From Catajapyx aquilonaris (lineage: Eukaryota): DNA of 53,533 nt. The translations under genes were made by a program, and so were the position numbers. A model generated the notes under the pieces. It ran no database searches. It saw nothing but the letters and a program-made list of their open reading frames with translations, and was not told the DNA's origin. Below are positions 16,792-45,702 of this stretch, in pieces. Within the stretch, counting starts at the first letter, position 1. Each line of letters begins with the position of its first letter. Where the stretch lies: assembly GCA_000934665.2 (NCBI GenBank), contig KZ538768.1:124001-177533 (forward strand). Reading direction: 5' to 3'.

Positions 16792-16844
<53 letters not shown>

Positions 16845-22949: not shown

Positions 22950-23398
22950 TTAATTCGAAATATTCGAATTTCGCGCCTTTTTCCCACCCTCCCCTTTCCT
23001 CCCTCCTTCCCACTTCCCAGTTCCCCTCCTTCCCCTTGCATCTTCTAAAATGGCGTCCATTCCTTCAGAAGGCTCGTTTTTCTTTCCTCCTTCCATCTGA
23101 TCGTCCTTCTCCCGCCCGTCGAACCTGCGTTTAATCCAGGTAGGTTGGCCCATGGGCAATCCCCGACACCCTGGCCGCCTTGAAGGGGCCAATCGACCTT
23201 CCCTTGCACCCGGATCGAGTCGGATTGAAGCCGGACACGTCGATCCGTCCTCTCCTTCCATGTTCCACACATATGGCCCCATTTTCATTGCAATAACGTT
23301 CTTTCTTCAGGTGAGCCAGCCCTCTGTTGCAGCAGTGTTTGGTACCGTGGTTTGGTCAGCCATAGAGTTGTTGAAGAAGCCAGGGGAGCATGGAAAGG
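22950..23398 (+). promoter_or_regulatory. Probable promoter and 5' exons of gene 2
   Basis: CpG-rich patch; YY1/Pho-like AAAATGGCG 23047-23055; donor cag|gtaggt at 23139/40, acceptor ttcttcag at 23310, donor AGG|gttagt at 23398/99. Confidence 0.55.
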
Positions 23399-26300
23399 GT
23401 TAGTATTTTATATTCCACTAGTTATATCAGTGCAGTAAGGGAAAGTTGTGTGCTGAAAAGGATGAGTAGAACAGGGCTGTGAAGTGATCGAAGTACCGTT
23501 GCACCTGAATCAATTAGTCATCAGGCTAAACTAGGGCACAAGGTTTTTTCAGTTACTTTATTTTTGTACGTTGTAAGGGTGCTGGGGACTGATTCTCAAG
23601 GATTTGTCAGTTTGTCAGTCAGAATTTAATATAGCAGAAAAGCAGGTACAGTAGTTTCATAATTTGTGTCACTTGTACAAAAACAGTTATTTCTTCCACA
23701 GGCAGGCTTCGGCAGGCATTCTTATCACATGGATGGGAAAGAAAAGCCCAGAGGCATTCTTGCCTCTTTAGTGCCAGTACTTCCGAAATATGACTCTGCT
23801 GATGACTGCGTCACAACTTATGTCACCTCCCCTTCGGACATGTGGGTCCACATGTCAGCAAATGGAGATATTCTGGCTGCTGTCTCCAATCACCTGAGGT
23901 CCATCTGCCCTATTCTGAATCCCCTAGAGCCACACACCATTGAGAAGGGATTAAAAGTTGCAGTGAGGTGTGAGGACAAGTGGTACCGGGCTCAAGTGGA
24001 GTCCTGCTACTTACAAGTACATCTGCTGGAATATGGCTACAGCACTCCAGTATCTCTTGAAGATGTGGTTAAGTTGCCTGCTGAGTGTCAGGAGCTGCCT
24101 CCATTGGCTACTCACTGCAGCCTTGGAGGCGTGCTGCCTGTAGACGTGGAGAAAGGCTGGGACCAGGAAACCAAGATTTTAGTGGAGAAGTTTGTTAGTG
24201 AGCCTGGTCTTCAGGTTACGCATCTTGGACTGGTGAGTATGAGCATATAGATTCATAGTGTGCATGAATTGCATGCCACAAAACTGATATGTGAAAGCAG
24301 TGTCTCGTTTACACAAAGCGGTATGAGCCATTTGACAGCTGCACATTGCAATAAGGTAATGTTTTCTGGGCCAAATGACCTCATTGCCATTTGCCGATGT
24401 GCCTCATTCCTGTTGGATGGCATAGAAGGACATTTTCCCTTGGAATAATGTTCAGCTGTGATTCATACTGTACAATATTAAGATAACATGACCCCCTCAA
24501 ACCATGGGAGTGAGTGACCTAGTTTACACCCAACCGGACAGCTATTAATGCAAATTTCTAGGAGTGTTGAAGTTACAAGAAATAGAAAGAGAGGTGCCAA
24601 AGAGGTGATCCTTCCATCTGCATCTGCTCAAGATTTAATTCATTATTTAATTCATTTCTTTCACATCAATAACGAAGTTGTTTTTTTTTTTTCTGCTGAT
24701 CCCTCCTGAAATAGTAGTCCGGACGCTAAGAGCCAATTTTGAGGCGAACCGTTCACTTTGTGAAGATAGCATGAAATTTGGCATAGATGTAGAATAAACC
24801 TTACTCTTCAAATACAGATGTGGAGCCACGCGAGATTTTGCCCCGGAGGCGGGTTGGCTACCCTGAAGCGAGTGAAAAGTCTCTTTCTGAGCGAACTATG
24901 CTTCTTAGGCGGATATGTGCCAAACAAATGTTGTGGGGAAACATGTATCCTACAAAAAGTATATAGTAACATTTCCACGTACGGTCCGTATTTTCGGAGC
25001 TACTGCGACTTGAACCAAATTACGGGACGAAAAAAAAGTCAACCGTGCATTGGTGAAATTTGGTAAGAATGTCCCTGAGACCATACTCTTCCAATCCAGA
25101 TATGGCGCCACGGCCGTTTTCGTCCTGGAGGCCCGTAATTGCGGGTTGGCTACCTTGAAGCGAGTTGAAAGTATTTTCTGAGCGAACTATGCTTCTCAGG
25201 AGGAAATGTGGCAAACAAAGGTTGTACAGAAACATGTATTCTACAAAAAGGTATAAGTACGTTTTCCACGTAGAGTACTTATTTTCAGAGCTACAGTGAC
25301 TTGAACCCATAGTCATGGAATTAAGGGAATTAAGGTCAACAATGCACTTTGGTGATGAAAGCATGAAATTTGGTAAGAATGTCCCTGAGACCATACTCTT
25401 CCAATCCAGATGTGGAGCCACCCCAATTTTCGCCCCGGAGGCCCGTAATTGCCGGTTGGCTACCCTTCAGCGAGTGAAAAGTATTTTTCAAGTCGCTGCA
25501 GCTCTGAAAATAAGGACTCTAAGTGGAAAATGTACTTATACCTTTTTGTAGAATACATGTTTCTGTACAACCTTTGTTTGCCACATTTCCTCCTGAGAAG
25601 CATAGTTCGCTCAGAAAATACTTTCAACTCGCTTCAAGGTAGCCAACCCGCAATTACGGGCCTCCAGGACGAAAACGGCCGTGGCGCCATATCTGGATTG
25701 GAAGAGTATGGTCTCAGGGACATTCTTACCAAATTTCACCAATGCACGGTTGACTTTTTTTTTCGTCCCGTAATTTGGTTCAAGTCGCTGTAGCTCCGAA
25801 AATACGGACCGTACGTGGAAATGTTACTATATACTTTTTGTAGGATACATGTTTCCCCACAACATTGGTTTGGCACATATCCGCCTAGGAAGCATAGTTC
25901 GCTCAGAAAAAGACTTTTCACTCGATTCAGGGTAGCCAACCCGCCTCCGGGGCAAAATCTCGCGTGGCTCCACATCTGTATTTGAAGAGTAAGGTTTATT
26001 CTACATCTATGCCAAATTTCATGCTTTCTTCACAAAGTGAACGGTTCAAACCCTTACCATCCGGACTATAGAGGAAAATATTATTCTTGAATAGCATTCA
26101 AGTCAATTTTATTTGTGGAAAAGATATACGTATGTTACCTCCATGATGATAACATACTGTATGTTCAAGTGATGTAAGTTAATTAAGTTTCACTCTGTCA
26201 TAATTTTAAATGGGCTTTTTGCATAACTGATCCATTTCCTTGTCACTGTTTCTTGAGACCAGTCATGTGAGTGTGGGCATTGACTTAAATAAAGTAAATC

Positions 26301-29300
26301 CACCAACTTGTGTCCCCCACCATTTTTCTCGCCCAATTTATGACCTCCTATGGAAAAAGTTAAATAACAAGAATTCAAAACATGTAGCATAGTAATTAAC
26401 CACTTTGGGAGCACTTCCTATCTTTATTTAGCAACCTGTAGTAAGGTGAAGGTCAGTAGTGAGTTGGTTCTCAAGAATTAAATTTGAGTGTCAAGTGCTG
26501 CACAGCGACAGTGTATTATGGGGTGAAAAATGCCATTTCCGTGAAGACAGTGGTTCTCAAACTGAGGGGCGCGCCCCTGGGGGGGGGGGGGNNNNNNNNN
26601 NNNNNNNNNGGAAGTACCATACAGGTATAGCATGAGAGCGCCTTTTTCAGTGCTAAAAAGCCGCTCAACCAGGTTCAACCCGCTGCACTTGCCAGTCGGG
26701 GCCAGTCAATTCGAACAGAAAGGATGTGACGTCCCACCGTAATAAAATAATTGATTACTCCCGTATTTCTAATTGTTTTGTAAAACTGATCGGGGTTGTC
26801 GCCACCTACGATTTTTCCTCACCCCCTCACAGCACGCTTGACCCGTGACTCTGAAACACCCTGTATATTTTTTACATGTTTATTTTAAAATGGGGGAACA
26901 GTTTGAAGGTTACAATTAGTAATTGAAGATGTCCTTTTCCTCTTGTGAATGTTTGTTCTAATCGTACCGATGCATTTTAAGAGTTAGTGTGGGCGTGTCA
27001 GAAAAATCTGTCGTTCGCCAATTGATGACACCCTTAGAAATAGTGTGTATTTACATTCGAATTGTTACATTTACAATCATATTGTAATAGTTTTATGATT
27101 ATGAAATGGATCTAAAAGGAACATTCGATGAATAGCCTTTTCAGTCGTTAATGATGATTGGATCCAATATGTTAATGACACCGTCTGTCATAAATAAGAT
27201 GTTGGGCTGTCAGGATTCGGTATTTCATGCATTTTCAAGACATATTGACATTTATTGGACTTTTATTTCTAACGGAACTTTTTGCCGATGCACGGATTAT
27301 AGGGAGTGTAATGTACATACTCTTCAGAAAGAGGCATAAAATCATCAGTGATAAAGTGAGCCAGACTTGGACATAATCCAGAACCCCCATCATGCCGGAA
27401 AATCTGGTTTTCACAATAAAAATTAAAATTAAAAAGTGCAGAAAGAAAAAAATGGGTGTCATAAAATGGACAAAAGCAGGGGTCACAAATTGGATTGAGG
27501 GTGTACAGGGTCATGATGCAGCATGATAGCAAATTTCACTTTGTGTGGTAGTCAGTATTAAGGAAAGTAAAACACAGATTCAGGTCGAGCATCAAATTAA
27601 CTATCCAGACAAGTCTGTAACATTATTATTATTATTATTATTTTTCTTTAGGGTGTTATGTGCAGAACCCAAAATCGGTATTTTTTTTTCTCCTTAAGAT
27701 GGTATATAAATTGGTAGGTTTACCTTAATATATTCTTTGCCTAATGAGTTGCTTTGTGGCATTTTTACATCTAGTTTCAACTATTAAAGCCTTTTCCCAT
27801 TATGCACCAATAGCATTAAATTGCTGTGAAAAACTTATATTAATGAATGTTGCAATGGAAGAAATCTTGGAAGAAATTGCTGTGGTTTGTTCTTTCATGT
27901 GATGCAGCAATGTTAATCAACATGGCATTTTCAGAGAGAGGGAAGACCCCTGATCAAGTTGTATGACGTGAGAGGCGAGAGTTTGGCAGACATGCTGATC
28001 AAGAAAGGCCACGCCCAGCCATTTGAACCTGAGAGAATGCCTGATTTGACAGAGGTTGTTGGCTCCTGGCTGAAGAAAGGGATGGAGCTACATGCAGCTA
28101 TCAAAGTGGTGGATATACAGGGAGGCCGACCCATGTGCATAATATCTTCCGAGGGGAAGGAAATTAAGTGCAGCCTGGATTCATGGGTAAAGCACATGGG
28201 AGAGTCAGCAGCTCCACAAGACAAAGATGAAGTCCATGCGACTGGCTTCGAAGCAGTTGCCGGGGCCAATGGAACTGACCAACACCTGGGCTCGCAAGAA
28301 ACATTTAGCAATACACGGTATTTATTTAATAAAATAATTAGAGTTGATGAGGTGGACAATATATTTTTAGGCCTTGAGTGACTGACTCACACTGACTCCT
28401 TGCCAGGGATTCCTGCTGTACTAGGGTGTCATTTGGTTTACAAACAATTTTGCATGGTTCTGTCCTTGGTTCTGTCCATCAGCTTGTTTGATTTAAGTAG
28501 AAAAATTTATTGAGCTTTAAACTTCATTGATCAAGTTGCCAAGTCCTCCTGTTCTTTATCATCGAATTAGGTGGTATGGTGGTGCAGTGGTAAGGCCACA
28601 GACCCTTGAGATCCGAAGTTCGATCCCCCAGTTTGGACAGAGGATTTTCTGATTATGGAACTTTTCAGTGGCTTCTTTCTGTTGGGCCTCAAAATAAGAA
28701 TTCCTATGAGGCTAAAGCTTATCATAGGATAGGGTATCCATTTATTAGTACAAGTATAAGAGTGAATGTTGGGATGACTCTTAATTTTTTATATGCTAGC
28801 ACAGTGGTTTCCAACTGGGGGGTCGCGAGCCTTGGTTCAACTTTTTTTGTGTGCAATTTCTGTGCCAATTGAACCATTTTTGCGTCTGTACAGAGTGTAT
28901 GTTTTCTGGAAAGGGGGCAATTGTAGAAAGGGCTGGGGTAGGGGAGGAAAGGTGGGTTGCACATTTATGTAACCATGTTTAGGGGGTCGCAGTTGGTAAA
29001 ATGTTGGCAACCACTGTGATAGCATGTCTGTCATCTTACTGATTGAACCAAATTATGATAATTATAAAATCATTAGATGATATGATTTGATGAAATCATT
29101 TCAGGGAGACAACAAGAGATGACAGTGGACTCCACATTAAAGGACTGCCTCCGCATTTTACTGAGGTACGTTTGGGATATGAAATGTAGTTTGGTACATA
29201 TTTAACTTATCAGCACTGACCATACAATAACCCACCCTTTCTCTCCTATCTCCTAGACGTCAGATAATAATCTGAGGTGGATAATTGGGGTTCTACTGTA

Positions 29301-32300
29301 TATCGAATTCAATTTTTTAGTTGGCATATTTTTCATTCATTCATTATGTCAACGCATAATCCCAGAAATGGGGTAGCCAGGAACAACTAGTTTATGCCTA
29401 GCCATCTCGTATGACCATTACAATGGATCTTCTGGTGACTGGTCAGGCCACACAGAAGATATAATGAATTAGGTGATGATGACAGGTGATATGGACACAT
29501 ACATACAAATACATGAACATACAATGTAAAAAGTTAATAACAGTATAAACAAAAATATAGAGCAGCTGGAGACTAGGCCGCCAACTCCATCCCTTCGGCG
29601 ACGGTGTTTGGCACCAGGTTGGAATCTTGCCAGAGAGCACCCAAACTTGCGTCCTTCCAGTCAAAACTTAATTAGAACTTAGGTTAGTTGGCATATGCTA
29701 AGAATAAAATGTTTATGAAGCATGACCATGATTTTGAAGACTACATTTGGCTACAGCTAGACTTTCATGAAAACCTAGATCCAGTTTGTTGTGTATTTTT
29801 TTGCACATGTGAAACTTGTACTCTCTGTATCACCTGATCCCATTTCGATCACAATATGAAACTTTGGGAGGTGCAAGAGGATAGTACAAAGTAACTGTGA
29901 GAATTTTTTTCAAACTTTTAAAAATCACATATTTCGAAATATTTAAATTTAAAAATTTTATTGAATTTAAAATTTTCAATAAATATGCTAACCACTGTCA
30001 TGTTACATATCAAATTTAAGGCCATCTAAATACTTCTAATATGAGGCATTGCCCAGGTTTCTATCTCATGCCCAGGTTTGTATCTCGTCTGGTTCCTGAG
30101 AAAATAACACCTAAGTATGTCAAGACGCTGCAATTTTTAGTCAAAATTAGAATATTTCACGTTTAATTACTTTTGAACGGTAGGCAAAAAAAAAATCTTT
30201 CTTGTGGTTTTCATTCATAACTAGGTAAGGACACATGGTACACCAAGTTTCATCAAAATCTGAGGGGTCAAGGCCAATCAGTGTGATGATTTGACATGGA
30301 ATGACCCCCATTACATTTCAACCAGTGTTATGACACATTGTCATACCCACAACAATGGGTAAGACTCAACTAGCTCAGATGGGACGCAGGTTCCGTTAGG
30401 AAGGACACCAGAATGAGAGTTCAAACCAGATGTATTATTTCCTTCAGAGTATACAGAACAAGTGCCAAAGAGCGAGAGGGCCGCTGAGCAACACCCCTGC
30501 TTATATAAGGTCGCTTCCCCCCACAATGACTTCGGGACTTGAAGGGGGAGGAGAGTGGGAGCATGAGTTGGGGGTACTGGGCACGTGCCTCACAGGGCGG
30601 GAAGGGGTTGGAAATACAACATGTCAGGAACAAGGTTCCTGACATGTTGACATAAAATGATAAATGCAAATAAATTTCACAATATAAACTGTTACCAGTG
30701 TATACATAACTTTCTACTCCCAATTTATTAGAAGAATGTGGATGTACAGCATATGTATAGCACCCTCAATTTATAATATTTAATTTAGGCAAGGTATGAA
30801 ATTACAGTAAAACCTCGATATGAAGCTCTACAAGGGACCTCCCAAAAGTAGCGTTGTAAGCAGGATAGGATTATATGCAGGAAAATTTACCTTACGGAAA
30901 TTATCAAGGGGCCGGAAAAAAAGGGGGCATTAAAAGCGGGAAAGTGTTATATATGGCAGCATTATATCGAGGTTTTACTGGATACGATATTAATAATTCT
31001 TTTCACATCACCGTTTGGAACCACCATTGCCTTAGTTGATGCAATTTTTCCAGTGCTGTCACTTTTATCGACATCTTTTGTATTCTTTAGAATCCCTGTC
31101 CAAGAGAAAAGAAGTTCTCGGAGCCTACACGACTCCATCCTAAGAGAGTTCATAACCTCAATTGTATGATGACGCACTTGAACTCTCCCGCTGACATCTG
31201 GGTGCAGCTCAGCGTAAACAGTTTTATCTTGGCCGCCTTGATGAAAGAACTTGAGACAGTGGGCCCTACCCTCATGCCCCTAAAGCCTGACACCTTCAAA
31301 GTGGGAGACATGGTTGCAGTGGAGTTTGAGGATGAATGGTATCGTGCGAAGGTCACCTCTATTGCCTTCCGAATAGGCATTCAGTATGTGGATTATGGCA
31401 ATAGAGACGAAGTCAGTGCTTCAGAAGTGTTTGACCTGCCGGAGGAGTGCAAGAACTTGGCTCCACTGGCCACGCAATGCAGCCTGGCACGCGTGAGGCA
31501 AAGGGACTGGCAGACCGGCTGGGCCCAAGCTGCTTGTGCTCTTCTTGCCAAGTTCATGAAGCAGACGACCCTCTCCGTAGAGTGCACTGGACTGGTGAGT
31601 CTTGGTTTGTTAAGCCTGTTGACAAGAGATTTTTGGAGCTTATTGCATTACATGAAAAGGAGTGTTACTGCTTCAATTTTCATTATTTCACATCATCCAT
31701 TGATAGGATTGTGAGTTGAAGGTGTCCCCAGGTGCATGCCAACAGTAATATATCCTTGTGTGAAGTTATTTTAGAAGATGGTTGAAACTTGCATTGTTTT
31801 GCATGGTAGAATCAAATGAAAGTGGGATAGGTAATTGTGTGTAGGGTAATTTGTCATCAAAGAATTAAAATTACTTGCCTTGTTGATAGATTTGTGTGCA
31901 CTACTCCACTCTATCTGACCCACTCTTGGGAATTGCAGATGACTACTTTCATAATGCCCATTACAACAAGTGCAATTACTAGTCACAAGAACAAGCCAAC
32001 AAGCATTCTAAAATCACGATCAAAATTTAATGAATTATGTTTAATATTAATTTTAAATGCTGCCCTTGTACTGAGAGTTTGAAAAAAACTCAGGTAGATA
32101 GCTCGCTACATTTATGATCCCAAAAAAGTCTTTTGGACATTAGTTTTGATTATTGGATTCATGTTTATCTTACCTTTACATGCACTTCCAGAATGAGACA
32201 GTTGCACTAGTGGACTTCTATGATGACAAGGGTAAGAGTGCATCTGATCTGCTATTCGAGAATGGCTTTGCCGTACGGGACGCAGATGTAGTGTCACCAT

Positions 32301-33685
32301 TGGAAGCTGCACCATCAAAGACAAGGTATTGTATGAGATCAACAAGCCTATTATCTGATTGGGTATTTTTTGTGCTAGATTTGAGTAAATGTGGTATTAA
32401 TAATAAGATCTTGAGTGTCAGGTGAAGTCAGTAAGAGATTGATACTGTATCTACATTATTATAATTATTAATACACTTCCCTGACAAGAATTCCTCCTTG
32501 GACCCTTAGGCCTACGACGTTGGGAGTGGTCTCTAATTTAAGGCAATCATGTGTAAATGCGCATTAAGTTTTTTTGTTATAAAAATTCCCAGGAGGAGAG
32601 AAGAAAAGTGCAAGTTTTTTTTGTACCGTACTGTGTTTGTCCAGCTTTGGTTACCATGGCAACCTGATTTTCAGTTTTGCCTAATTTTGGCAATAGGTTC
32701 ACTAGTTGGATTTTAATAGCCTGAGGCCGGGTTGCACCGGCTCCCGGAAAAGTCTGGCCGAAGAAGAGCCACATTAGTTTGTTATTCATTGTTGACAGAA
32801 TTGTTGACAGCAATGAATAACAAACTAACCTGGCTCTTCTTCGGCCAGACAAATTTTCCGGGAGCCGGTGCAACCCGGCCCAAAGGTGCGTTTACATGTG
32901 AGTGATGACATCCCTGAGTAACCAGAGTTACGATTGTTACTGTGATTGTTACTTTTGCTCCTAACAATTGGATTCATCGCTCGGCAATGACATTGCGCGA
33001 TCAAATCGCTGACAAGTAAACGCATCTGAAGAGTTTTAGAAGTCTGAATATGCTGAAAAGCTGGGGTTTTCTCAGAAATTAGCCAAATTTTTTCCCAACG
33101 CGAAATTTAAAAAATAAACACTGTGTGTAATTATGCAGAATATTCTGCAGCTTAAGGGGGCGCAGGAGCAAAAATACAGTAAAACAGATGGTGATTGTTT
33201 GCACAACGATATGTGGGTTTTGTTGCCCCCTCTCAAACAATCCCCCATGGCCCCCTTCTGTTGCTAAACTGCCTTCCCGTTCCCACACTACATTTGAAAC
33301 TCGTGTCTAAGCTTCGTGTGTCTCTGGCGACGACCCCAACAAACTTGTTTATGTATGCAGCATAGGAGGATTCAACATGCCTATGCTTCTGCAGCTATAT
33401 GGCCTCAAAAATTGTTCAATCGACACAGAAATTGCACCAAAAAATAGTAGATCATCTGGCGCAGGGCATCTAGTTCATCTTTATTCCATTTTCCGCCTAG
33501 AAATGACCTTACGGCGAGTTGAAGTGAGAGGAAAATGGAGTTTCTGAAAAGTCAATTTGAATAACATGGTAAATAAATCGCGACAAAATCGGACTCGCTT
33601 CTATGCCCGTATGGCCGCAATTGTGTCGAGTATGGTACCATTGTCAAGGCCAAACCTTTGTGTAAGGCACCTAGTTTGTGAGGTT

Positions 33686-33731
<46 letters not shown>

Positions 33732-36700
33732 TAATAATGATAATAATGATAGTAATAGGGGAGGTGTAGATGGCCGAGATGGTAACATCTTGGATTGCTG
33801 AGTGAAAGGCCCCAGGTTCGATCCCCACCTGGGAAACTTTCCTTTCACCTGCTTCAGGAGGGTCTCTGACCTGCACCAAGGAGGTGTCTGGCAACCTAAC
33901 CTCCTGGGGGACAGCACATGACCCATTTGTAGACATTGCACTTGCACCTATGTTCCCTCCCCAAAAAATCCCTACCCCTACCCTACATCCTTGACTCCTT
34001 GCACCGGTGAATGAAGTTAATATAGGAAAATGGAGTGAAATGGTGGTATTCCACCCCCCTAAAAAGGCTCAGCCTTATCACGGGGTAACATAAAAAAAAA
34101 GTAATAGTACTAATAGTAATGGTAATAATAATAATCATTCATACCCGTTATCAGCCGGCGGCTCTTTAGGGGGGGAGTTCATCCCAATTTTGTTTTAACT
34201 GGAACTCTTTGCTTTCATTTTTACTTTTCTTTTTGGGATAGGATAGGGACGGAAGGAAGCGGCTGTGGCCTATTACAGTATTTAGGAAGCAATCCTGGAC
34301 TTCTCCTGGGTGGACCTTTATAATTGATATTAGGGAGGTTGGCCCAGGATTGCCTTTCAACCTCCAAAGATAGGGAAGGAAGGAAGCGGCTGTGGCCTAT
34401 TATGCGGAAGCGACCCCAGAATTATTCTTGAAAGACCATGGGCAACCACAGAAAACCATGGTCAGGGTTGCCGGCCCCAGGAATCGAACCCATGACCTCC
34501 CGATTAGCAGTCGCACACCTTATCCACTCTGACACTAAACTGCTTCGGTATTTGTGAGGCTTTTGGATTAATTATGAGTTTCGACACAAAAAATTAAGTT
34601 CCCTGTGAAATGCTTCCTACCGTATTTTTGCTACTTCGCCCCCTTTAAGTATGATTTTGTCCTATGTTTATCTGAATTGTTGAGCATCATAGCTGCGAAT
34701 ATTTTTCAGGTGCCCATCAGAGAAGGAGACAGCCCTCTTCATCACGGGACTTTCACCCACGAAGACCAAAGTAAGTGGTTATGAGATTGGGCAAGTCATT
34801 GAATAATGAGCAACACAATAAATGAAACACCATGTTGTATGCTTAAAAACACTATAGATACTTAATGCCAGTAAAGAATAATGTCACAAATGTACGGTTA
34901 TTACTTGACATTAGTACATCTCTATAAGATGTGCCTTGTGGAACCATTCCATACTGTGAGGTATATGGTGCTGCCTTCTCCATTGGTTCTGAAGTTCTTC
35001 CACAGTTTTCTTTCTTGTTTTCCTTCCACAAGGATGTTTTGCGATTTTGCCCCCTTTTACATGGGTGTTGCTCCTTCCATTATTTCCTTTCTTAGATGTT
35101 AGAGTACTCACTCTTATTTTCATTTTTGCTACCCTTGGCTATTTTTTATTCCTATCCCAAATGCTTAACTCTTAATTTATTCACTACATTCATCCATTGA
35201 CATCCACAGTGATTCCAGGCATGTTATTAATCCAGTTGGTGCTGTTATGTTGTCACATATTGCTGTGTAAAGTTATTATTAACTTTTTCCCCCTCCCTCT
35301 GCAGGAGGAGGTTTCTGCTCTCTTTGAGAGAGAGACTACCCTACGCCCTCACACTGTCTGCACGGGCACACTACGTGATGATCAGTGTTGGTTTATTGCC
35401 GTATTTCAAACGCACAATGATGCCCAAAAAGCCATGGAGAAGTTACATGGCTTTCGTGTAGCCAAATCCTCCACTCCCCTGACTGTGACATTCAAGAAGG
35501 CAAAACGGTCCCCACGTGAGGGTGATGGCCAGAGGGTTGGGCAAAAGAGTGTGAGATTCTCTGACAAGCATGCAGGTGGCCTAAGACAAGAACAGGTGAC
35601 TATTTGTCTAGCATTATCCACTTCCATACTTTTAATGTCCCAGATAACTCCTGATTATACTTCCAGCAGTATCCTGCCCAGAGGAACTGTGTGGCACTTG
35701 CTGAGACTGGTGGAGATGGTGACAAAGCTGGCCCATCAAGGTTTGTAGGTTTCAGTAAAATATCTAGGTAATGAGGGTAGTACACTACTTGAAGTAAGGG
35801 ATTTATTCGCATATTGAAGTGCTTGCAGAAGGGCTCTGATTTCACAGCTTTTCTCAAGTCTTCCTGAGTTTGCTTTGAAATGTGACATCTCATAGGTGAT
35901 GGTTATTTTCCAAATTTATGCTAATGATGTGATACTTTGACTATTTTTCAGGACAACTGATCACCGAGCGTCATTCATGACCAACATCCCAAAACATTCC
36001 AATGAGGTAAGTGACAGAGCCGAAGTACACCCGCGAGCATAAAGATGGAGACGGCAGGCCCTTTTTGACATTTTTTTAAATCCGACTCAAATTAATGAAC
36101 TCTTTTTGGACCGAGTTGGCTGCTTCAGGCGTGTGTTCGTGTATTTATGACAGTATATTTGAAACCGTAATAGCTGAGATTGGCAGAGCAGCCTGCCGAA
36201 GGTGAGGACCTGCCGTCTCCATCTTTATGCTCGCGGGTGTACAAGGGGACATACCCCAAGCAAATCTTTTAAGTAATTAGTACTAAACTTGTAATCAATG
36301 AGCATGATTAATTGAACTGCATCTCCCAGAAATGAGAGAGAGAAGCTGCTGAAACATATCTCAGATTCAGCTTAACTTAAATGTTAATTACCAAGTAGGC
36401 TAGTCCCCAAGTCATATTTTTCAAGGTACTTTCCAGAGATGTTACTGTAGATGCAAGTCCTTAAAAACGTCCAATATGGGATACATTGAATTCAGGTGGA
36501 ATTCAAGGAACCTCTACTAGAACAATCCTTCATGGAATGGAGACAGTAACTTGCTTAGGGACTTAATGCCGTGTGTTCATATGGCATCTTCAAACATAAA
36601 GTTCACTCCTGGCTGTAGGGCTGTCAAAAAAAACACAATATAAAAGAAAATCACACCGCTGTTCTTTTTCCATAAGGGCATATGGAAAAAGAACCGCTTC

Positions 36701-38783
36701 TTCGGTTCTTTTTCCATCCCTGTTCACAAGTGTTGAGGAAGCCAGGGAAACATTGAAAGGATTAGCTTTTTTATATTCCACTAGTTATCAGTGCAGTAAG
36801 GGAAAGTTGCGTGCTGAAAATTATGAGTACAAAAGTGCTGTGAAGTGATCCAGGTACCCTTGCACCTGCAGGGATGGGCAGTATTTAAATACTTTTTGGT
36901 ATTTAGGGATGTATTTATAACTACATCGGTTCTCCTGTATATTTAAATACTGTATTTCAATACATTTCTGAGTATCTAAATACAGAAGTAGGTATTTAAA
37001 TACATATCTTAAATACTTTCCCTAATTCCCTTTCTATTTATATTAGCATAAATCTTAATTCGGAAACCAAGATCTGCTGAAACCTAATGGAGTTGGTGAG
37101 AGGGGAAACCCCCCAAGTCTAGCAGTACTGCTAGACCGTGGGAATTTTTTTTTGGGTGTGGGATGACTCATGGGTGTATGAATCATCAACCTGCCATCCA
37201 CTTCCTGCACTCACAACTCACAAGCTTGTGAACAGGTACTGCAGTGTGTACAGGAGTGGCAGAGTGGCAACAGTGTGGCTGCATGTGTGGGCCTGTGGGC
37301 CTGCGGTGGGCTTTCGTCCCTCGCCGCCACATTCCATGTCCACAAAAATGTATTTGAAATCAATGAAATGTATTTACAAAAGTATCTAAATACTTTTGGT
37401 GTATTTAGTATTTAGTATCTAATTACTTTCTTATTCAGTATTTAGTATTTAATTACATTTTTTTGCAGTAGTTCGTATTTAGTATTTAATTACATTTTTT
37501 TTGCAGTAGTTCGTATTTAGTATTTAATTACATTTTTTTGCAGTAGTTCGTATTTAGTATTTAATTACATTCAAGTATTTAGTGCCCATCCCTGTGCACC
37601 TGAATCAATGAGTCAGGCTAAACTAGGGCACAGGGGTTTTCAGTTACTTTATTTTTGTACGTTGTAAGGGTGCTGGGGACTGATTCTCAAGGATTTATCA
37701 GTTCGTCAGTCCGAATTTAATATAGCAGAGCAGCAGGTCCAATTTTTGTAAATAATTTGTGTAACTTGTACAAAAACAGTTATTTCTTCCACAGACAGGC
37801 TTCAGCAGGCATTCTTATCACATGGATGGGAAAGGAAAGCCCAGAGGCATTCTTGCCTCATTAGTGCCAGTACTTCCGAAATATGACTCTGCTGATGACT
37901 GCGTAACAACTTATGTCACCTCCCCTTCGGACATGTGGGTCCACATGTCAGCAAATGAAGATATTCTGGCTGCTGTCTCCAATGAGCTGAGGTCCATCTG
38001 CCCTATTCTGAATCCCCTAGAGCCACACACCATTGAGAAGGGATTAAAAGTTGCAATGAGGTGTGAGGACAAGTGGTACCGGGCTCAAGTGGAGTCCTGC
38101 TACTTACAAGTACGTCTGCTGGAATATGGCTACAGCACTGCAGTACCTCTTGAAGATGTGGTTAAGTTGCCTGCTGAGTGTCAGGAGCTGCCTCCATTGG
38201 CTACTCACTGCAGCCTTGGAGGCGTGCTGCCTGTAGACGTGGAGAAAGGCTGGGACCAGGAAACCAAGATTTTAGTGGAGAAGTTTGTTAGTGAGCCTGG
38301 TCTTCAGGTTACGCATCTGGGACTGGTGAATATGAGCTTATAGATTCATAGTGTGCATGAATTGCATGCCACAAAACTGATATGTGAAAGCAGTCGTCTC
38401 ATTTACACAAGGCGGTATGAGCCATTTGACAGCTTTGCATTGCAATAAGGTAATGTTTTCTGGCCCAAATGTCCTCATTGCAATTTGCAGATGTGCCTTA
38501 TTCCTGTTGGATGGCATTGCAGGACATGTTCCCTTGGAATAACATTCAACTGTCATCCATACTGTAGGCCTACAATTAAGATAACATGACCCCCTCAAAC
38601 CATGGGAGTGATTGACCTAGTTTACACCCAACCAGACAGCTATTCATGCAAATTTCTAGGAATGTTGATGTTGCAATAAATAGAAAAAGAGGTGGCAAAG
38701 ATTCTTCCATCTGCATCGGCTCAAGATAGACTTTAATTCATTCTTTAATCATTCTTTCATCATTCTTTCACGTCAATAACGAA

Positions 38784-38814
<31 letters not shown>

Positions 38815-41800
38815 TTGCTGATCCCTCCTGAAATGAAGGAAAATATTATTCTTGAATAGTATTCAAGTCAATTTTATTTGTGGAAAAGATACATGTTACC
38901 TCCGTGATGATAACATATATGTTCAAGTGACGTAATTAAGTTTCACTCTGTCATAATTTTAAATGTGCTTTTTGTGTAACTGATTCATTTCTTTGTCACT
39001 GTTTCTTGAGACCAGTCATGTGAGTGTGGGCATTTACTTAAATATATTATTTGCCTAATGAGCTGCATTGTGGCATTTTTGCGCCTAGTTTCAACTAGGA
39101 AGGCCTTTTCTTCCCATAATGCGCGATTAATATTAAATAGCTGTGAAAAACTAATATTATTAATGAATGTTGCAATGGAAGAAATTTCTGTGGTTTGTTC
39201 TTTCATGTGATGCAGCAATGTTAATCAACATGGCATTTTCAGAGAGAGGGAAGACCCCTGATCAAGTTGTATGATGTGAGAGGCGAGAGTTTGGCAGACA
39301 TGCTGATCAAGAAAGGCCACGCCCAGCCATTTGAACCTGAGACAATGCCTGATTTGACAGAGGTTGTTGGCTCCTGGCTGAAGAAAGGGATGGAGCTACA
39401 TGGAGCTATCAAAGTGGTGGATATACAGGGAGGCCGACCCATGTGCATAATATCTTCCGAGGGGAAGGAAATTAAGTGCAGCCTGGATTCATGGGTAAAG
39501 CATATGGGAGAGTCAGCAGCTCCACAAGACAAAGATGAAGTCCATGAGACTGGCTTCGAAGCAGTTGCCGGGGCCAATGGAACTGACCAACACTTGGGCC
39601 CGCAAGAAACATTTAGCAATACACGGTATTTATTTAATAAAATAATTAGAGTTAATGATGTGGACAATTTTTAGGCCTTGAGTGACTGACTCACACTGAC
39701 TCCTTGCCAGGGATTCCTGCTGTACTAGGGTGTCATTGGGTTTGCAAACAATTTTGTATGGTTCTGTCCTTGGTTCTGTCTATCAGCTTGTTTGATTTAA
39801 GTAGAAAAATTTATTGAGCTTTAATCTTCATTGATCAAGTTGCCACGTCCTCCTTTTCTTTATCATCGAATTAGGTGGTATGGTGGTGCAGTGCTAAGGC
39901 CACAGACCCTTGAGATCCTAAGTTTGATCCCCCAATTTGGACAGAGGATTTTCTGATGTGGAATTTTTCAGTGGCTTCTTTCTGTTGGGCCTCAAAATAA
40001 GAATTCCTATGAGGCTAAACCTTACAGTACAAGCATAAGAGTGAATCTTGTGATGACTCTTTATTTATTATATGTAGCATGTCTGTCATCTTACTGATTG
40101 AACCAAATTATGATAATTATAAAATCATTAGATGATATGATTTAAATTGAAATCATTTCAGGAAGCCAACAAGAGATGACAGTGTACTCTACATTAAAGG
40201 ACTGCCACCACATTTTACTGAGGTATGTTTGGGATATGAAATGTAGTCTGGTATATATTTTAACTAATCCTTACACCAGACAATCACCCAACCTTTCTCT
40301 CCCACCTTCCTAGACTCAAATCCCTGGGCAGAGGAGAATTGGAATATGGACCAGGGTCTAATGGCCCTGAGGCTTTCCTGGATATTTTTTCTGATAACTA
40401 CATATTCCCATAGAGGGGTAGCCAGTGGTGTCCAGGTATTTCCTGACCTCCTCGTTAAGACGATATCTGAATAGGTTAATAACTGTAGTGGTTGAAAACT
40501 GAAAACGGTTTATCTTTTACTTCCATCATTGATATCAAGAATTGTTGGCACCCAGGTAGAGATCTGGAATCAGGCTCTTGCGTGATATATGGCATGAATT
40601 TTTAATTTAATGAATCCGTACTTGTGCAATTTGGATGTCAATAATTGAGGAGAGATTTTTACATTTTGAGATGGGTAGCTAGTAGGTGATGCACTTTCTA
40701 TGGACACCAGTGTATGTTAAATTTAAAATATTCCTCTCATATTAAAACTAAAAACTAAAAAATAAGGAAGATACCCAGTTCCCATCCTCAATCAAAATTA
40801 TAGTTATTGTCATTTTTCCACTCAATTTCCACATATCTTCAAGGCTCCCAAAAAATGCCAAAAAAATGTCTCTTCAAGGTCAAGCCCAAGGTTAGGCAAG
40901 TGGTCCGAGACATGACACCTGTGCTACAGTTGTCCTCCAACTCAATGCTTCTTAGTTCTAGTATAGAATATTATACCTGGTCTCACAAAATAATAATATT
41001 CCCATTGTCAGGCAAGGATGATGTACTGACCCTTACCTGTTACTCTGTACATTGTTTGCCAAACCTTGGCCAAACAAAGGAAGAGGGCTGGAGATGATAC
41101 TTTTTCTCAGAATTTGATTATCAGCTGAAAATTCCTATGTACTGTTTCATAATTTAGCTCACATCAGATCTGCAGCAGTTGAAATGTCACGAACTTTTCT
41201 GTGCCAAGATGGTATCCCTGGGCCTTCCAAATTTTAGTTGGTCCAGAAGAAACAAATGTTCACCCTCCCGACATAACCACTTAGCAACCTCCCCCACCTC
41301 CCCCTCTCTCCTTTCTCCTTTCTGTTCTTGTCAAGTTGCCTTCAACACTTGTGGGCTTACCAGGTATTTTTGCAGATACAGATGTGAACTACATTATGAA
41401 ACTTGTTTAGGTTATGATCAAAATGCACTCTAGATTCGTGGTAGAAGTTTTCTTTCTCTCTCTCTCCCTCTCGGTTGAAATATTGCTATTTCAATTTGCC
41501 ATTGAGCTGCATGCATTTCTTGTCCCCTACCTGCATAATCATAACTAAACTGAAAAGCATGCTAAAATGCCATTGTTATTTTTATCACACAGGACGAAAT
41601 CATGAGGCTCTTTGAGAAGATAACAGCCTACAGACCTTGTGGCATTAAAAAGGGCCTTACTGGGCTGTGGTGCTTTTTATTCTATGAAACTCCTCAGGAA
41701 GCACAGGAGGTCCGTAAGATGATGAATGGCTATCGTCTGGACAATATTTCGAATCCCTTGTTTGTTGACACGAAGCGGACCAAGTTGATCAGAGGGAATG

Positions 41801-44800
41801 ATGGGAACCCCAAGGAGCATAGCAATGAGCCTTTCTGCACAGTTAAGAATGATAGTTGGCACTTGCTAAAGTCACATGACATGCTGCAGAAGGAAAAGCA
41901 ATCAGGTATTGTGGAACCTGTGCAAGATACTATGGATATGCCAATATCAGAGAGTGAATCCATGTCCACTACTGCTGACAACCTCTTTGAGGCTGAAATG
42001 GCTACACCACAAATGCCAGCACCTCGAGGAAAGGCTGTGAGTGGCGAACAGTACCCAGCTCAAGAGAGCTTTCTTCTGCAAGTGAAACCTGATGCAGACC
42101 TGCAACTGGTGGTGACTAAACCACGTAAGGTTGGATCTTTCCCAGCCACATTGAAACAAACAGAAAGCATGGCAATTGGTGAGGCTACTGTTGAAATAAA
42201 TGAGATTGCTCCCACCTTGCCTCAGTACTATCCTTCACCAGGAGAAGTGGTGTTTGCAAAATCTGCAAGTGGCGGCTGGAATAGGGCCTATGTCAAGTGT
42301 GCCGCAGATGATGAAAAGTTCCTAGAAGTCATATATGTGGACTTCTGTTGTGATGGAAAAGTGAAGGAGGTAGTGGCCATGCCTGACAAGTACAAGAAGT
42401 TACCAGGACTGGGTGTTCAATGTACACTAGAGGAAGAAGCTCCATGGATTGAAAAGGGCGTTTTGCAAGTAAAGGTGCTGGAAGTGAGAGGAAATGGAGC
42501 AGAGTTGCTATGCCTCTTGTCCATGGAGAGCAATGAAGTGAGGGCCATCATGACCCCCTGGAACTATGAAATAGGATGCCAAAACAGGCCTACCGAAGAG
42601 GATGTCACGGTACACATCATTGGTGATGAATCCAAGGAAGGCAGCTTATCTCTGGAGAGTTCATCACAGAATGAAAGGTACTGTATTTGTTGTTATTTTA
42701 ACTTCTGAGGGTGGGAGGCAAATTAATGTAGTCAGTAGTGCACTGCCACATTTTGAATCAGTCATCTCATTAGGTTATCTGACTTCCACAATTTAGCATC
42801 AGTTGCATGATCGATGGTAAATCTAGAACAAGTTATTAAAACATTAGGCTGAAGCACTTGTTCTGAATTTTCCTTCAGCATTTTAGTGATATGTAGTCTG
42901 CTTCTTTTGGGCAATTGAGTGCGGAAGATCCAATCAGATCCAACTTTTCAGGATATCAGGGCCAAGTTCAATTAGCATAGATTTTTTTGGTGCCTTATTA
43001 TTTACTGTATGAGCAGGTTTGCATTATGTTTTTTCGTATAGCTCATGCCCAATAATCCCTTTATAATATGCCATGTTTTGTGTCATTGGACTACAAATAC
43101 CATGGACTGACATTCTTCTTTTCATCATAGAGAGTTAACTCAGAAGAAACAGTTGCAAGTGTCCCATGGTGGGTTCAGACTGAGCTTTATGTCACCACAA
43201 TTTAACTCGCACCATGATGAGGAGAGGGACAAGGGAGAAGGAGGAGACTTCCTGGATAAGAACGGACAAAGCACTCGTGGAACGTCAAGCCAAGCGAGTG
43301 TGCTGGAGAACAGAGAGGCTAGGAATCTGTATGATGAGAAGAGCTTTAAGCCCTGTAATAGTGAAGGGTCAATCGAGGAAAAGCCTTCGGTAAATAAAGA
43401 AACATTGAATACACAATTTATTGTTTTCAGAGGCTGAGTATTTCTGGATTAGCATGCTTAGGGTGAACATGTGGTGAGTGCAACAATAGCGAGATTGAAA
43501 ACCCATTTTCTTTTCAGGAGTCAGATTTACCCTTTTGGTGCAGCTCTGCAGATGGCAGAGAGGTTGGATGCCTGGCTGACACTGGGACTGTTCCACATGG
43601 TGAGACTAGGCTCTCATTTTTCTTTAGAACTGATACATTTGATTAATAAGCGGCATGCATTGGCAGTTTTAAGTCCATACCCACTGGTTCACGATGTACT
43701 TGGCAGGCAATAACGCTTTCCAAATTTTTGGGCCACTCATGTAGCGATAAAGGTAGGAGGACACACATTACGTGCAGGATGTAGAAAAATTCTGGGACCA
43801 ACATAAACTGCAAATGATGACTTTGGCCATATTTCATAAGACACTTGAGAATCATGACAACAGTGGAAATGTAGTAGTGTATTTTGTCTTAATTTTTGTA
43901 TGCAAGCAATATATTTTGTAACACCTAATGTGGTTAAAAATTTTTTTTCTCTAGATCATAAAAAATTTAAGTTACTGGGAATTATCCAAGTCATGTGTGT
44001 TTCAGATGTTAACTGACATTCACATTGATGGAAATGTGGATGCCTACTCCTCTCCACTTTAAAGTTTGCTGTGAGGAATTCATACCCAAACGGCCCAAAT
44101 GAACTTGTTGCAATGTGCAGATGTTCCTTTTCTGGGTGGGACAGCAGTGTAGTTGTGAACTTATTCTCTACTAGTACTGCCTTACAGAGTTACAGAAAGG
44201 TCATCACCAAAGAATCTGAACTTCCACTCATATTGGCCTTGCTATTGATTAAGATACTGGTAGCTTACAAGAAATTGCATTGTGTAATTTTTATGTCACA
44301 CTATCCATACTTTTGGGTAAGGCATGTGAAAGTACAGATTTGACTTCTCTTACGCAGAAAATGGCGATACGACTCGGAAAGAACCACCAAGAGCTGACAA
44401 TGAAGTGGCCTCCCACATGCTGAGTGATGCATCATGCACTCGTGCCTCTGAAAAGCTGGTATGTTCTAATGGGAAGGAGGCAAATGTGAAGCTGGCAGAT
44501 GTCAGTTACAATACACTATGCCACTGATCAACCTAATGCAGCAATTTAGATAAACACTAATTTACATTTCTGGCAGGCACACCTCTTGGACTTTCCATCT
44601 TCAGCTGAAATGGTGTTACTGGGCAACATGGCTGCCTACTGCGAGGAGATTGGGAGTTTGATGAGTCAGCTGCCAGACTCCTTAGGTGACATGAATGATG
44701 TCAATGATTATGTCAGGAAGGCTGCTTTGGAGACAGGTGAGGAGCCGGCAGGAAATTACAATGAAATGACACCAACCATGGAACTGGATGAAGCAAAAGG

Positions 44801-45702
44801 TGTCAGCCGTGATGCTTTGCAGGTAATAATTTGTTATAGGAATACAAACACTCAGTCTTCTCTAGATGCCATAATTGGCTGCATAATTGGCTGCATGTTT
44901 GAATAAGAGTTTGTTATTATGGATTGATCACACTATGAATGGTCAAATGATGCTTCAGAATTTCATCGAACTCAGATCATTCAGTGTGAAATGGGCACAA
45001 ACAGCATCACATTGCCTTTTTTGTTTTTATTTCCAGCATAATGAAACTGCAGGCATCTTGCACAGCTCAGATGGAAAGGGCATGAATGGCTCTGAGGAAG
45101 GGCGTGCATCTGATCCAGAGTCCAACCGTTTTGCTCACATGAAGCACATGGAGATGGACCACCAATGTTTGTCTCATTTCCAAGGATTGGGAAGCAGCCT
45201 GTGTCAGGTGACACCTGGGCACCAGATGAAGGTCATTGTCACAAGATCCCTTACCACTGAGGCCTTCCTTGCCACTGTCATATCATCTATGGATGTCTTC
45301 AATTACACAGCAGAGCTGGATGTAGTTGCGCACAACTTACCGCGATGCAAGCCATTACCGATGACCATCATGCTTGCAAAGGTACCAGGGACATCCTGGA
45401 AGCGTGTGTATATCCAGAAAGTGGATGGGGAGTTGATGGACGTTCTGGTGATTGATAGTTGCAAAGAGGAGGTGATGAAGGGAGCAGAGGTAGCTGAAAT
45501 CCCTGTGGAGTTCAGGAGGTTACCAGGGCACGGGGCCAGGTGTGATCTAAAAGAGAAGGTCACCTGGATGGAAGGGGTGATGGTCGGTGCTCGGGTGGTG
45601 AACAGGAGCGAAAACCACGACCTGTTTCACTGCATCCTTCGCTACAATGGGAGGAAAGTGGAGGGCACATTTGCTCCATGGCATAGGGGCCTGCAGGAGT
45701 AA
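23390..45702 (+). CDS. RRM + multi-Tudor protein, gene 2 (chimeric paralog; could be annotated as two genes split near 36.5 kb)
   Basis: Phase-consistent exons: 23390-23398(ATG GAA AGG), 23702-24232, 27935-28317, 29105-29165, 31091-31594, 32192-32325, 34710-34770, 35305-35595, 35667-35740, 35952-36006, 37795-38325, 39243-39625, 40162-40222, 41593-42677, 43131-43389, 43518-43599, 44358-44458, 44577-44822, 45037-45702(TAA); 5517 nt, open. One intron crosses the N gap. Confidence 0.6.
23702..24232 (+). CDS. gene 2 exon A: extended Tudor
   Basis: ccacag/gtgagt; TYVTSPSDMWV..KWYRAQV..LLEYG..LPPLATHCSL. Confidence 0.85.
24715..26068. mobile_element. Foldback DNA element with internal ~275-bp subrepeats (Academ-like termini)
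   Basis: tag|TAGTCCGGA...TCCGGACTA|tag; ~550-bp near-identical inverted arms; absent from the paralogous site near 38833. Confidence 0.85.
26548..26591. mobile_element. hAT-like terminus running into the gap
   Basis: CAGTGGTTCTCAAACT followed by a G-run. Confidence 0.5.
26592..26609. other. Assembly gap (18 N)
   Basis: N run. Confidence 1.
27935..28317 (+). CDS. gene 2 exon B: Tudor end + orphan C-terminal module
   Basis: tttcag/gtattt; LIKLYDVRGESLADMLIKKGHA. Confidence 0.8.
28802..29016. mobile_element. hAT-type MITE
   Basis: CAGTGGTT..CAAC / GTTG..AACCACTG; 8-bp TSD tgctagca/tgatagca; empty paralogous site near 40075. Confidence 0.85.
29105..29165 (+). CDS. gene 2 exon C: RNP2-type exon with no downstream RRM body
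   Basis: tttcag/gtacgt; DDSGLHIKGLPPHFTE. Confidence 0.65.
30339..30644 (-). mobile_element. Possible solo LTR
   Basis: TGTCA...TGACA ends, TATA-like cttatataag and polyA-like signal on the minus strand; no clean TSD. Confidence 0.35.
30805..30980. mobile_element. pogo-like MITE
   Basis: ta|CAGTAAAACCTCGATAT...ATATCGAGGTTTTACTG. Confidence 0.8.
31091..31594 (+). CDS. gene 2 exon D': extended Tudor (copy of gene 1 exon D)
   Basis: ctttag/gtgagt; EFEDEWYRAKV..YVDYGN. Confidence 0.85.
32192..32325 (+). CDS. gene 2 exon E'
   Basis: Paralog of 2550-2686 with a 3-nt indel. Confidence 0.75.
32725..32880. mobile_element. PIF/Harbinger-like hairpin MITE
   Basis: GGCCGGGTTGCACCGGCTCCCGGAAAA... nearly fully palindromic. 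Confidence 0.75.
32884..33027. mobile_element. PIF/Harbinger-like MITE
   Basis: aggtgcgtttac / gtaaacgcatct TIRs. Confidence 0.55.
33688..34549 (-). mobile_element. SINE family 1 with an expanded (ATT)n tail and an internal partial duplication
   Basis: Head ..gcttcggt at 34549; TSD tttgtgagg at 33675-33683 and 34551-34559. Confidence 0.8.
33758..34100 (+). mobile_element. tRNA-derived SINE, family 2 head, inserted in the (AAT)n tail
   Basis: A box tggccgagatgg, B box ggttcgatcc, A-tail, TSD agtaata. Confidence 0.8.
34710..34770 (+). CDS. gene 2 exon F': RNP2
   Basis: tttcag/gtaagt; ETALFITGLSPTKTK. Confidence 0.7.
35305..35595 (+). CDS. gene 2 exon G': RRM body
   Basis: ctgcag/gtgact; paralog of 7995-8279. 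Confidence 0.8.
35667..35740 (+). CDS. gene 2 exon H': linker
   Basis: Paralog of 8351-8424. Confidence 0.6.
35952..36006 (+). CDS. gene 2 exon I': degenerate RNP2 exon with no downstream RRM body
   Basis: tttcag/gtaagt; TTDHRASFMTNIPKHSNE. Confidence 0.6.
36028..36239. mobile_element. Tc1/mariner-type MITE
   Basis: Perfect 31-bp TIR cacccgcgagcataaagatggagacggcagg, TA TSD; absent in gene 1 near 8715. Confidence 0.9.
36869..37594. mobile_element. hAT-type MITE
   Basis: CAGGGATGGGCA/TGCCCATCCCTG TIR, perfect 8-bp TSD tgcacctg, subterminal gtatttaaatac repeats; empty site at ~23500. Confidence 0.92.
37795..38325 (+). CDS. gene 2 exon A': extended Tudor
   Basis: Near-identical to exon A, same 531 nt. 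Confidence 0.8.
39243..39625 (+). CDS. gene 2 exon B'
   Basis: Near-identical to exon B, same 383 nt. Confidence 0.8.
40162..40222 (+). CDS. gene 2 exon C': RNP2
   Basis: tttcag/gtatgt; DDSVLYIKGLPPHFTE. Confidence 0.75.
41593..42677 (+). CDS. gene 2 exon: RRM body + Tudor
   Basis: acacag/gtactg; DEIMRLF..WCFLFYETPQEAQ..MNGY..PLFV; PSPGEVVFAK..GWNRAYV..YVDF. Confidence 0.85.
43131..44822 (+). CDS. gene 2 low-complexity linker exons (43131-43389, 43518-43599, 44358-44458, 44577-44822)
   Basis: Four GT-AG exons whose phases chain 2-0-1-0-0 with no stop; no recognisable domain. Confidence 0.55.
45037..45702 (+). CDS. gene 2 terminal coding exon: Tudor
   Basis: ttccag acceptor; LAKVPGTSWKRVYI..LVID..LPGHGARCDL..APW; TAA. 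Confidence 0.8.
   Translation, partial: HNETAGILHSSDGKGMNGSEEGRASDPESNRFAHMKHMEMDHQCLSHFQGLGSSLCQVTPGHQMKVIVTRSLTTEAFLATVISSMDVFNYTAELDVVAHNLPRCKPLPMTIMLAKVPGTSWKRVYIQKVDGELMDVLVIDSCKEEVMKGAEVAEIPVEFRRLPGHGARCDLKEKVTWMEGVMVGARVVNRSENHDLFHCILRYNGRKVEGTFAPWHRGLQE

Follow-up and report, generated by a model that had tools for sequence, protein, structure and literature searches.

Multi-Tudor scaffold proteins such as TDRD1, TDRD6 and Drosophila Tudor carry many Tudor domains in tandem and have probably grown by internal duplication, and the Sdic gene of D. melanogaster is an example of a chimeric gene produced by tandem duplication. Chimeric genes that derive from tandem duplications spanning parts of two genes are documented in work on Drosophila (PMC5460883). 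The gene considered here, gene 2, lies in a 53,533-bp stretch of the genome of Catajapyx aquilonaris (GCA_000934665.2, contig KZ538768.1, positions 124,001–177,533 of the forward strand; this whole stretch is called the window, and all coordinates refer to it). It is predicted to be a Tudor/RRM gene in which exons of its upstream neighbour, gene 1, stand between two copies of its own 5' exons. The best explanation overall, to which we give a little better than even chances, is one partial tandem duplication with loss in the second copy, giving a single 19-exon chimeric gene.

As in the Drosophila cases, the duplicated segment would start in one gene and end in its neighbour, the 5' exons of the downstream gene would be joined to exons of the upstream gene, and the intronic breakpoints would keep the frame. 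Here, however, the second copy would also have lost 14.4 kb, so that the junction chimera is fused onward into the retained parental copy. The predicted outcome is an internally repeated gene, in which an exon set A-B-C recurs as A'-B'-C', rather than the third, separate gene of the Drosophila type. The mechanism (tandem duplication across two genes, then deletion) is well documented, and the value of the locus is that of a worked example, not of a new principle. If the 19-exon mRNA exists, gene 2 would be a clean, datable case of multi-Tudor domain accretion by phase-compatible exon-block shuffling; the growth of alternating Tudor/RRM arrays could be followed in it, and it would provide a natural experiment on the tolerance of added Tudor modules and orphan RRM strands. 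The window still shows the breakpoints together with the parental genes and a decayed copy of the first exon.

The predicted protein shares with TDRD1, TDRD6 and Drosophila Tudor the presence of many Tudor domains in tandem. Those scaffolds are without interleaved RRMs, whereas here the two kinds of domain are interleaved, and the duplication is young, with introns that align and breakpoints that are readable. Closer in composition are TDRD10, described as an RRM with a single extended Tudor domain and of unknown function (PMC12147562), and Vreteno, described as carrying an RRM, a MYND domain and two or three extended Tudor domains and as acting in the biogenesis of PIWI-interacting RNAs (piRNAs; PMC10711660). 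The likeness consists of RRM-like and extended-Tudor domains in one protein with the Tudor modules repeated, and the difference is that Tudor and RRM alternate here (Tudor-RRM-Tudor-RRM) in place of one N-terminal RRM. By analogy with such RRM-plus-Tudor proteins of the piRNA pathway, the protein may serve as a germline Tudor scaffold.

Structure of gene 2 and its duplicated blocks

The duplicated blocks were defined by self-blastn of the window. Block X (1321..8986), which holds exons D to I of gene 1, is copied as X' (30982..36492), and block Y (23369..29258), the 5' part of gene 2, is copied as Y' (36731..40315); these and all exons given below are on the plus strand. Along the window the order is X, a unique stretch Z (9–23 kb), Y, X', Y' and a unique stretch Z' (40.3–45.7 kb). 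The main matches between X and X' are 1321–2782 with 30982–32415 (89.4% over 1463 nt), 7953–8721 with 35264–36029 (86.7%) and 8746–8986 with 36255–36492 (88.7%), and smaller collinear pieces lie between them. Those between Y and Y' are 23369–23507 with 36731–36868 (87.1%), 23500–24712 with 37595–38834 (91.0%), 26072–26291 with 38837–39044 (90.0%), 27719–28801 with 39033–40079 (91.1%) and 29020–29258 with 40075–40315 (89.7%). Block identity is 80–91% including gaps, and the E-values (0 to 1e-41) are well outside what chance would give. The introns remain alignable, with 7–8% substitutions next to exons, in agreement with an earlier reading of the sequence alone that had called the duplication recent.

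The model of gene 2 consists of 19 exons (23390–45702) and 18 GT-AG introns, with one stop at 45700–45702 and a coding sequence of 5559 nt (1852 aa) that is open throughout. It was curated by hand from candidate exons, pairwise alignments and the splice sites common to both paralogous copies; the candidate exons are the output of our own dynamic-programming gene finder and are not counted as evidence for one gene. A putative start exon of three codons (23390–23398) is followed in block Y (self-blastn, Pfam and alignments) by exons A (23702–24232, Tudor), B (27935–28317) and C (29105–29165). Exon C is the first strand of an RRM and ends at the donor GAG/GTACGT. Block X' (self-blastn, Pfam and exon pairs), which is without a start or stop of its own, contributes exons D' (31091–31594, Tudor), E' (32192–32325), F' (34710–34770), G' (35305–35595), H' (35667–35740) and I' (35952–36006). 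Block Y' (self-blastn and alignments) contributes A' (37795–38325, Tudor), B' (39243–39625) and C' (40162–40222). The unique 3' part Z' (41593..45702; Pfam, ORF comparison and RRM profile, ORF being an open reading frame) consists of an exon with the rest of an RRM and a Tudor domain (41593–42677), four exons at 43131–43389, 43518–43599, 44358–44500 and 44577–44822, and a last exon with a Tudor domain and the stop (45037–45702). At the first hybrid junction C ends at 29165 and D' starts at 31091, both in phase 0, and at the second I' ends at 36006 and A' starts at 37795, again both in phase 0.

The block order (start-A-B-C, D'-I', A'-B'-C', unique exons), the phase-0 state of both junctions and the open frame of 19 exons had all been given by the sequence-only reading, and are recovered here by self-blastn and in the rebuilt model. 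Its length of 5517 nt (1838 aa) gives way to the longer value above; the additional 42 nt are probably in the unique exons. The start exon is uncertain: the three-codon version has a weak donor (score 1.4), well short of the 7.8 reached by an alternative first exon with its end at 23310.

In the predicted protein there are five Tudor domains. Two RRM-like domains are complete, and two further RRM first strands, from exons C and I', stand as orphans. With Pfam PF00567 at a cut-off of 23 bits, a Tudor domain is matched in 10 of 20 long ORFs scanned, all of them on the plus strand. Five are in gene 2, at 23663–24250 (67.0 bits), 31091–31714 (73.5 bits), 37765–38343 (68.6 bits), 41566–42708 (25.2 bits) and 44887–45702 (23.2 bits). 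The translations of the four exons that hold the rest of an RRM, used as a profile, match solved RRM domains, with ELAV-like 1 at E = 5.1e-5 and Bruno-like 4 and TNRC4 at E = 0.001, and RRM proteins make up most of the top 30 matches. Taken singly, these exons score below threshold with Pfam RRM_1 (PF00076; two of the four, at E = 0.11 and 0.19), as is expected because a phase-0 intron splits the domain after its first strand. The Tudor label given from sequence alone is thus borne out by Pfam, and the RRM label is supported by the profile matches, with RRM_1 below threshold. Motifs which we take to be RNP2-like, read by eye against the consensus, are present in exons C, C', F, F', I and I'. 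Reading of the alignment by eye also indicates a DYGN motif in exons D and D', with WYRA in D' and WCRA in D, and EYGY, without the Asn of DYGN, in exons A and A'. On our assumed picture of the extended-Tudor aromatic cage, D' may bind methyl-arginine and A and A' may not.

Relatives of these domains are distant. A HMMER search with a 380-aa ORF against all representatives gives 26 matches at E ≤ 0.001, the best of them 30% identical. Among the longer database proteins exon D' has one match, at 25% identity, and exon A' has none. When six of the 27 related database proteins were compared with the window by tblastn, the matches were scattered, confined to Tudor domains and not collinear, so the ancestral architecture cannot be read from relatives. 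Orthology to TDRD10 or Vreteno was not found, the best relatives being 25–30% identical and alike in Tudor domains only. Scans of 32 ORFs and exons, a set that covers part of the small exons, gave no MYND match. The only literature match for chimeric gene, tandem duplication and Tudor domain in combination concerns another subject.

Homology between X and X' begins 109 nt upstream of D'. For Y and Y' it reaches no further than 21 nt ahead of the putative ATG, so that Y' contains no copy of the promoter. The Y' copy of the putative start exon (~36752–36760) has decayed, with ATG changed to ATT and the donor GT to AT. Filler sequence lies between Y and X' (29259..30981, the main part of the C–D' intron) and between X' and Y' (36493–36730), and by sensitive blastn neither filler matches anything elsewhere in the window; for the first, this covers both 1–1320 and the sequence past Y'. 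This first filler is moderately repetitive, with a word depth of 89–1283 against ~26–37 in single-copy contigs (one DNA run).

Several insertions are private to one copy. In Y' there is a 727-bp insertion (36869..37595) with terminal inverted repeats starting CAGGGATGGGCA and an 8-bp target duplication TGCACCTG, and alignment of the flanks shows the matching site in Y to be empty. Just past exon I' in X' lies a small element (36025..36242) of 218 bp with 38-bp terminal inverted repeats. Its site in X is empty, and the element is very high-copy in the reads, with a depth of ~10,000. In the A–B intron, copy Y alone carries a fold-back repeat (24746..26047; 561-nt arms, 97.9% identity), which is followed by the sole N gap in the window (26592–26609, 18 N) and by a high-copy repeat of high word depth. 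Another very high-copy repeat occupies 33340–34673 in the E'–F' intron of X' (word depth 55,000–92,000 against ~30 for single copy); pieces related to it are found at 4194–4482 and 16082–16374, and its minus-strand ORFs are without a Pfam match. The B–C intron of both copies contains a tRNA-like stretch (28570–28650 and 39874–39955), probably a tRNA-derived short interspersed nuclear element, which must predate the duplication because it is present in both; ARAGORN calls no tRNA at either position.

Reading frame, origin and alternatives

The splice-site AG and GT are retained in both copies for all nine duplicated exon pairs. The exons of X and X' differ by six indels (6, 3, 6, 3, 3 and 9 nt), all multiples of three, as against 14 of 39 indels in introns; the chance of six in six is 0.36^6, or ~0.002. 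The exons of Y and Y' show no indel in 975 nt, where 12.3 would be expected at the intron rate of 12.6 per kb; they differ at 26 of 975 positions, and the introns next to them at 123 of 1715 (p = 4e-7). Between X and X' the proportion of nonsynonymous differences (pN) is 0.102 and that of synonymous differences (pS) is 0.157 (p = 0.018), and the protein differs by ~22%. Under neutral drift of X' alone the probability of no frameshift is ~0.014, and that of no stop is ~0.12 in a simulation with 57 random substitutions. This calculation assigns half of the changes to X', as is supported for exon D, where polarisation against three paralogous Tudor exons gives seven changed sites in each of D and D'. 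These data argue for selection to maintain the reading frame in every block, and all of the duplicated blocks still look translated. Since X' has neither start nor stop, it would be translatable only within a longer message. Indirect support for the chimera comes mainly from this point.

Divergence is uneven within the first exon of this block. The first ~100 nt of D and D' (1421–1526 and 31082–31180) are 73% identical with a 6-nt indel, and the remainder of the exon is 89–99% identical; in the chimera the divergent start of D' lies directly past the new C–D' junction. Faster change in X exons than in introns holds against exon-adjacent introns (p = 0.006) but fails against the interior blocks, which are 12% diverged, and is not claimed.

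The arrangement could have arisen as follows. The duplicated segment ends on the left at 1321, in the intron before exon D of gene 1, and on the right at ~29258, in the intron after exon C of gene 2, and one partial tandem duplication of ~28 kb between these points would have copied it. The second copy would have lost 14,382 bp, equivalent to 8986–23369, either in the same event by template switching or later. The lost stretch would comprise the 3' half of gene 1 with its stop, the intergenic region and the promoter of gene 2, the loss ending 21 nt upstream of the putative ATG. The C donor would then splice to D' and the I' donor to A', and transcription and splicing would yield a single mRNA whose 19 exons form a continuous open frame. 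The copied first exon has no acceptor and so would be skipped, lying inside the new I'–A' intron; the decay of this copy agrees with its disuse. Each breakpoint is either ahead of exon 1 or in an intron of phase 0, which is why both new splices would be in frame. The parental introns involved are all phase 0, so that the in-frame outcome would be a consequence of module structure and not a coincidence. The copies are collinear and adjacent, with X before Y in both. Substitutions in exon-adjacent introns amount to 104 of 1371 positions (7.6%) for X/X' and 123 of 1715 (7.2%) for Y/Y' (Fisher p = 0.68), an equality that fits one age for the two pairs. Gene 2 is probably a real, young and functional chimeric gene made by a known mechanism, as judged from its sequence.

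Several points weigh against a single message derived from a single duplication. The pS values differ four-fold (0.157 for X/X', 0.036 for Y/Y'), and interior intron blocks of X are 12% diverged (51 of 423) against the 7.6% next to exons, so that a single age for X and Y needs rate heterogeneity or gene conversion. The fillers at the two junctions (1.7 kb and 238 nt) are without explanation, and the RRM first strands encoded by C and I' are left in the chimera without the rest of the domain. The single transcript, its start site and its exon boundaries are all in silico predictions. Our gene finder chains everything into one gene under all four penalties tried and is unstable on small exons, and it chose mini-exons in the filler instead of joining C to D'. 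Finally, the Y–X' junction lies in repetitive DNA that is not bridged by short contigs (mostly 0.4–2.3 kb), and the comparison of the assembly with such contigs is a weak one.

The higher pS and the diverged interior introns could mean that X' is the older copy, and would then favour an origin in two events. The sequence-only reading had proposed either the insertion of a block from gene 1 between tandem copies of A-B-C, or the fusion of a truncated gene-1 duplicate to a downstream paralogue; on the second course, with gene 2 as that paralogue, the duplication of A-B-C would come afterwards. However, the exon-adjacent introns are equally diverged, and the order of X before Y in both copies, which comes free with one tandem duplication, would be a coincidence with two events. 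One duplication with loss is on these grounds the simpler account, and an origin in two events seems unlikely. The same reading had held the choice to be undecidable from the window, the 5' end of gene 1 being outside it. This view is weakened: D is probably the first large coding exon of gene 1, since D, E, F and G are old paralogues of A, B, C and the first exon of Z', so that no A-B-C set is required upstream of D, and one plausible start exon of gene 1 (645–680) is inside the window. It is also conceivable, if rather improbable, that the structure is real and that its products differ from the single 19-exon message. There might be two transcription units, a truncated start-A-B-C-D'-I' chimera that ends by read-through and a separate A'-B'-C'-Z' gene with a new promoter and a Met inside A'. 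There might instead be isoforms that skip blocks. With phase 0 at every block border, splices from C to 41593, from I' to 41593 and from exon 1 to A' would all keep the frame. Exons A and A' do share a conserved in-frame Met (codon 13 of the model), the 727-bp transposon just upstream of A' could carry a promoter, and a frame that continues through the I' donor ends at a stop 11 codons on. Joining I' or C to 41593 would moreover restore a whole RRM, where the full chimera leaves two orphan first strands. Against these possibilities stand the absence of the promoter region from Y' and the decay of its first exon. There is no canonical poly(A) hexamer between I' and A' (no AATAAA or ATTAAA in 36007–37794), a weak point against a separate unit, as is the CpG observed/expected ratio upstream of A', which is not raised (0.34–0.39 in 36501–38000, compared with 0.49 for the window and 0.96 at a probable promoter nearby). 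The kept frame of X' shows translation in some product, but not in which one.

An error of assembly, with X' misplaced between Y and Y' through flanking repeats or with haplotypes joined head to tail, seems very unlikely. It would be favoured by the repetitive nature of the Y–X' filler and of parts of the introns (word depth 89 to ~10,000), by public contigs too short to bridge these repeats and by the one scaffold gap in the first copy. The assembly was compared over 22001–42000 with short contigs from three DNA runs, all from one sample and possibly the source of the assembly itself. Of the five runs available, four are DNA of this sample, and the contigs of the fifth, of unknown kind, match 22.0–22.8 kb and repeats only. 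Most contig joints had sides of 20–30 nt within repeats and were left out of account. Contig word depth, by the tool's own warning a poor measure of copy number, is 25.6–33.8 in X' and 25.8, 27.5 and 26.7 in unique flanks in one run; the two other runs agree, and a half-depth signal is absent. The sequence at both hybrid junctions is free of gaps. The clustered variants in exons D' and E' that at first sight are heterozygous were rejected as contigs of the paralogous copy: all 14 apparent variants on X' carry the letter of X, so that both copies are present in the reads, and four of seven on Y/Y' carry that of the other copy. True heterozygosity thus appears low, with few variants across 20 kb that are not paralogue letters. 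The divergence between copies is far greater (7–12% in introns, ~22% in the X/X' protein, with six in-frame indels). The homology of X' stops sharply at 30982, with none to 1–1320, where a joined haplotype would continue. Each copy has transposon insertions of its own (727 bp in Y', 218 bp in X', the fold-back repeat in Y) at sites that are empty in the other, and misplacement of X' through repeats is unlikely. Returning to a single chimeric gene, a more far-reaching view is that D'-I' and the parental D-I are both diversifying under positive selection with the frame held, that the two A-B-C copies are fixed anchors, and that the locus encodes a Tudor scaffold of the germline, of piRNA type, which gains client-binding modules through exon-block shuffling as part of an arms race with transposons. 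It would draw on X exons that are no better conserved than adjacent introns, on the symmetry of D and D', and on the divergent start of exon D. Taken as one claim, we regard it as quite doubtful.

Gene 1 and other features of the window

As judged from their exons, gene 1 and gene 2 are two old tandem paralogues built of extended-Tudor and RRM modules. In gene 1, block X (self-blastn, Pfam Tudor, exon pairs and RRM profile) consists of exons D (1430–1939, Tudor), E (2550–2686), F (4117–4177, first strand of RRM1), G (7995–8279, rest of RRM1), H (8351–8424) and I (8635–8698, first strand of RRM2), the first RRM being spread over F, G and H. The unique remainder Z (9681..19375; Pfam Tudor, candidate exons and paralogy of the last exon) is absent from the second copy and begins with the rest of RRM2 (9681–9949). 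Four further Tudor-bearing exons follow, at 10515–11127, 14868–15759, 16889–17295 and 18860–19375, the last of which contains the stop, at 19375. Gene 2 in its simple form would consist of A (Tudor), B, C (RRM first strand), a long exon with the rest of the RRM and a Tudor domain, four small exons and a last Tudor exon. In ORF-to-ORF comparison D and A share 39–41% aa identity and E and B 43%. The corresponding values are 35% for G and the start of 41593–42677, and 32% for the last exons of the two genes. Both genes have a similar C-terminal motif and end a few residues beyond it.

Within gene 1 the end of exon E recurs in a small tandem repeat (2638–2789 and 3631–3782, 86% identity), which may contribute an additional 72-nt exon at 3608–3679. 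X' has a single copy, so that the repeat must have formed in gene 1 once the duplication had taken place, or else have disappeared from X'. One intron of gene 1 contains an inverted repeat (12597–13007 and 13230–13640) with 411-nt arms of 99.5% identity, which has the appearance of a fold-back or transposon insertion of very recent date.

The window as a whole has a G+C content of ~42% and is depleted in CpG (observed/expected 0.49). Rfam and tRNA scans of the whole window gave no match, and this includes small nucleolar RNAs within the neighbouring gene 2.2 kb downstream of gene 2 (47894–49579, plus strand). That gene is of the NOP56/58 type, a component of small nucleolar ribonucleoproteins, with NOP5NT and Nop domains in three large exons. 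A CpG-rich stretch at 47501–48000 (observed/expected 0.96) is probably its promoter.

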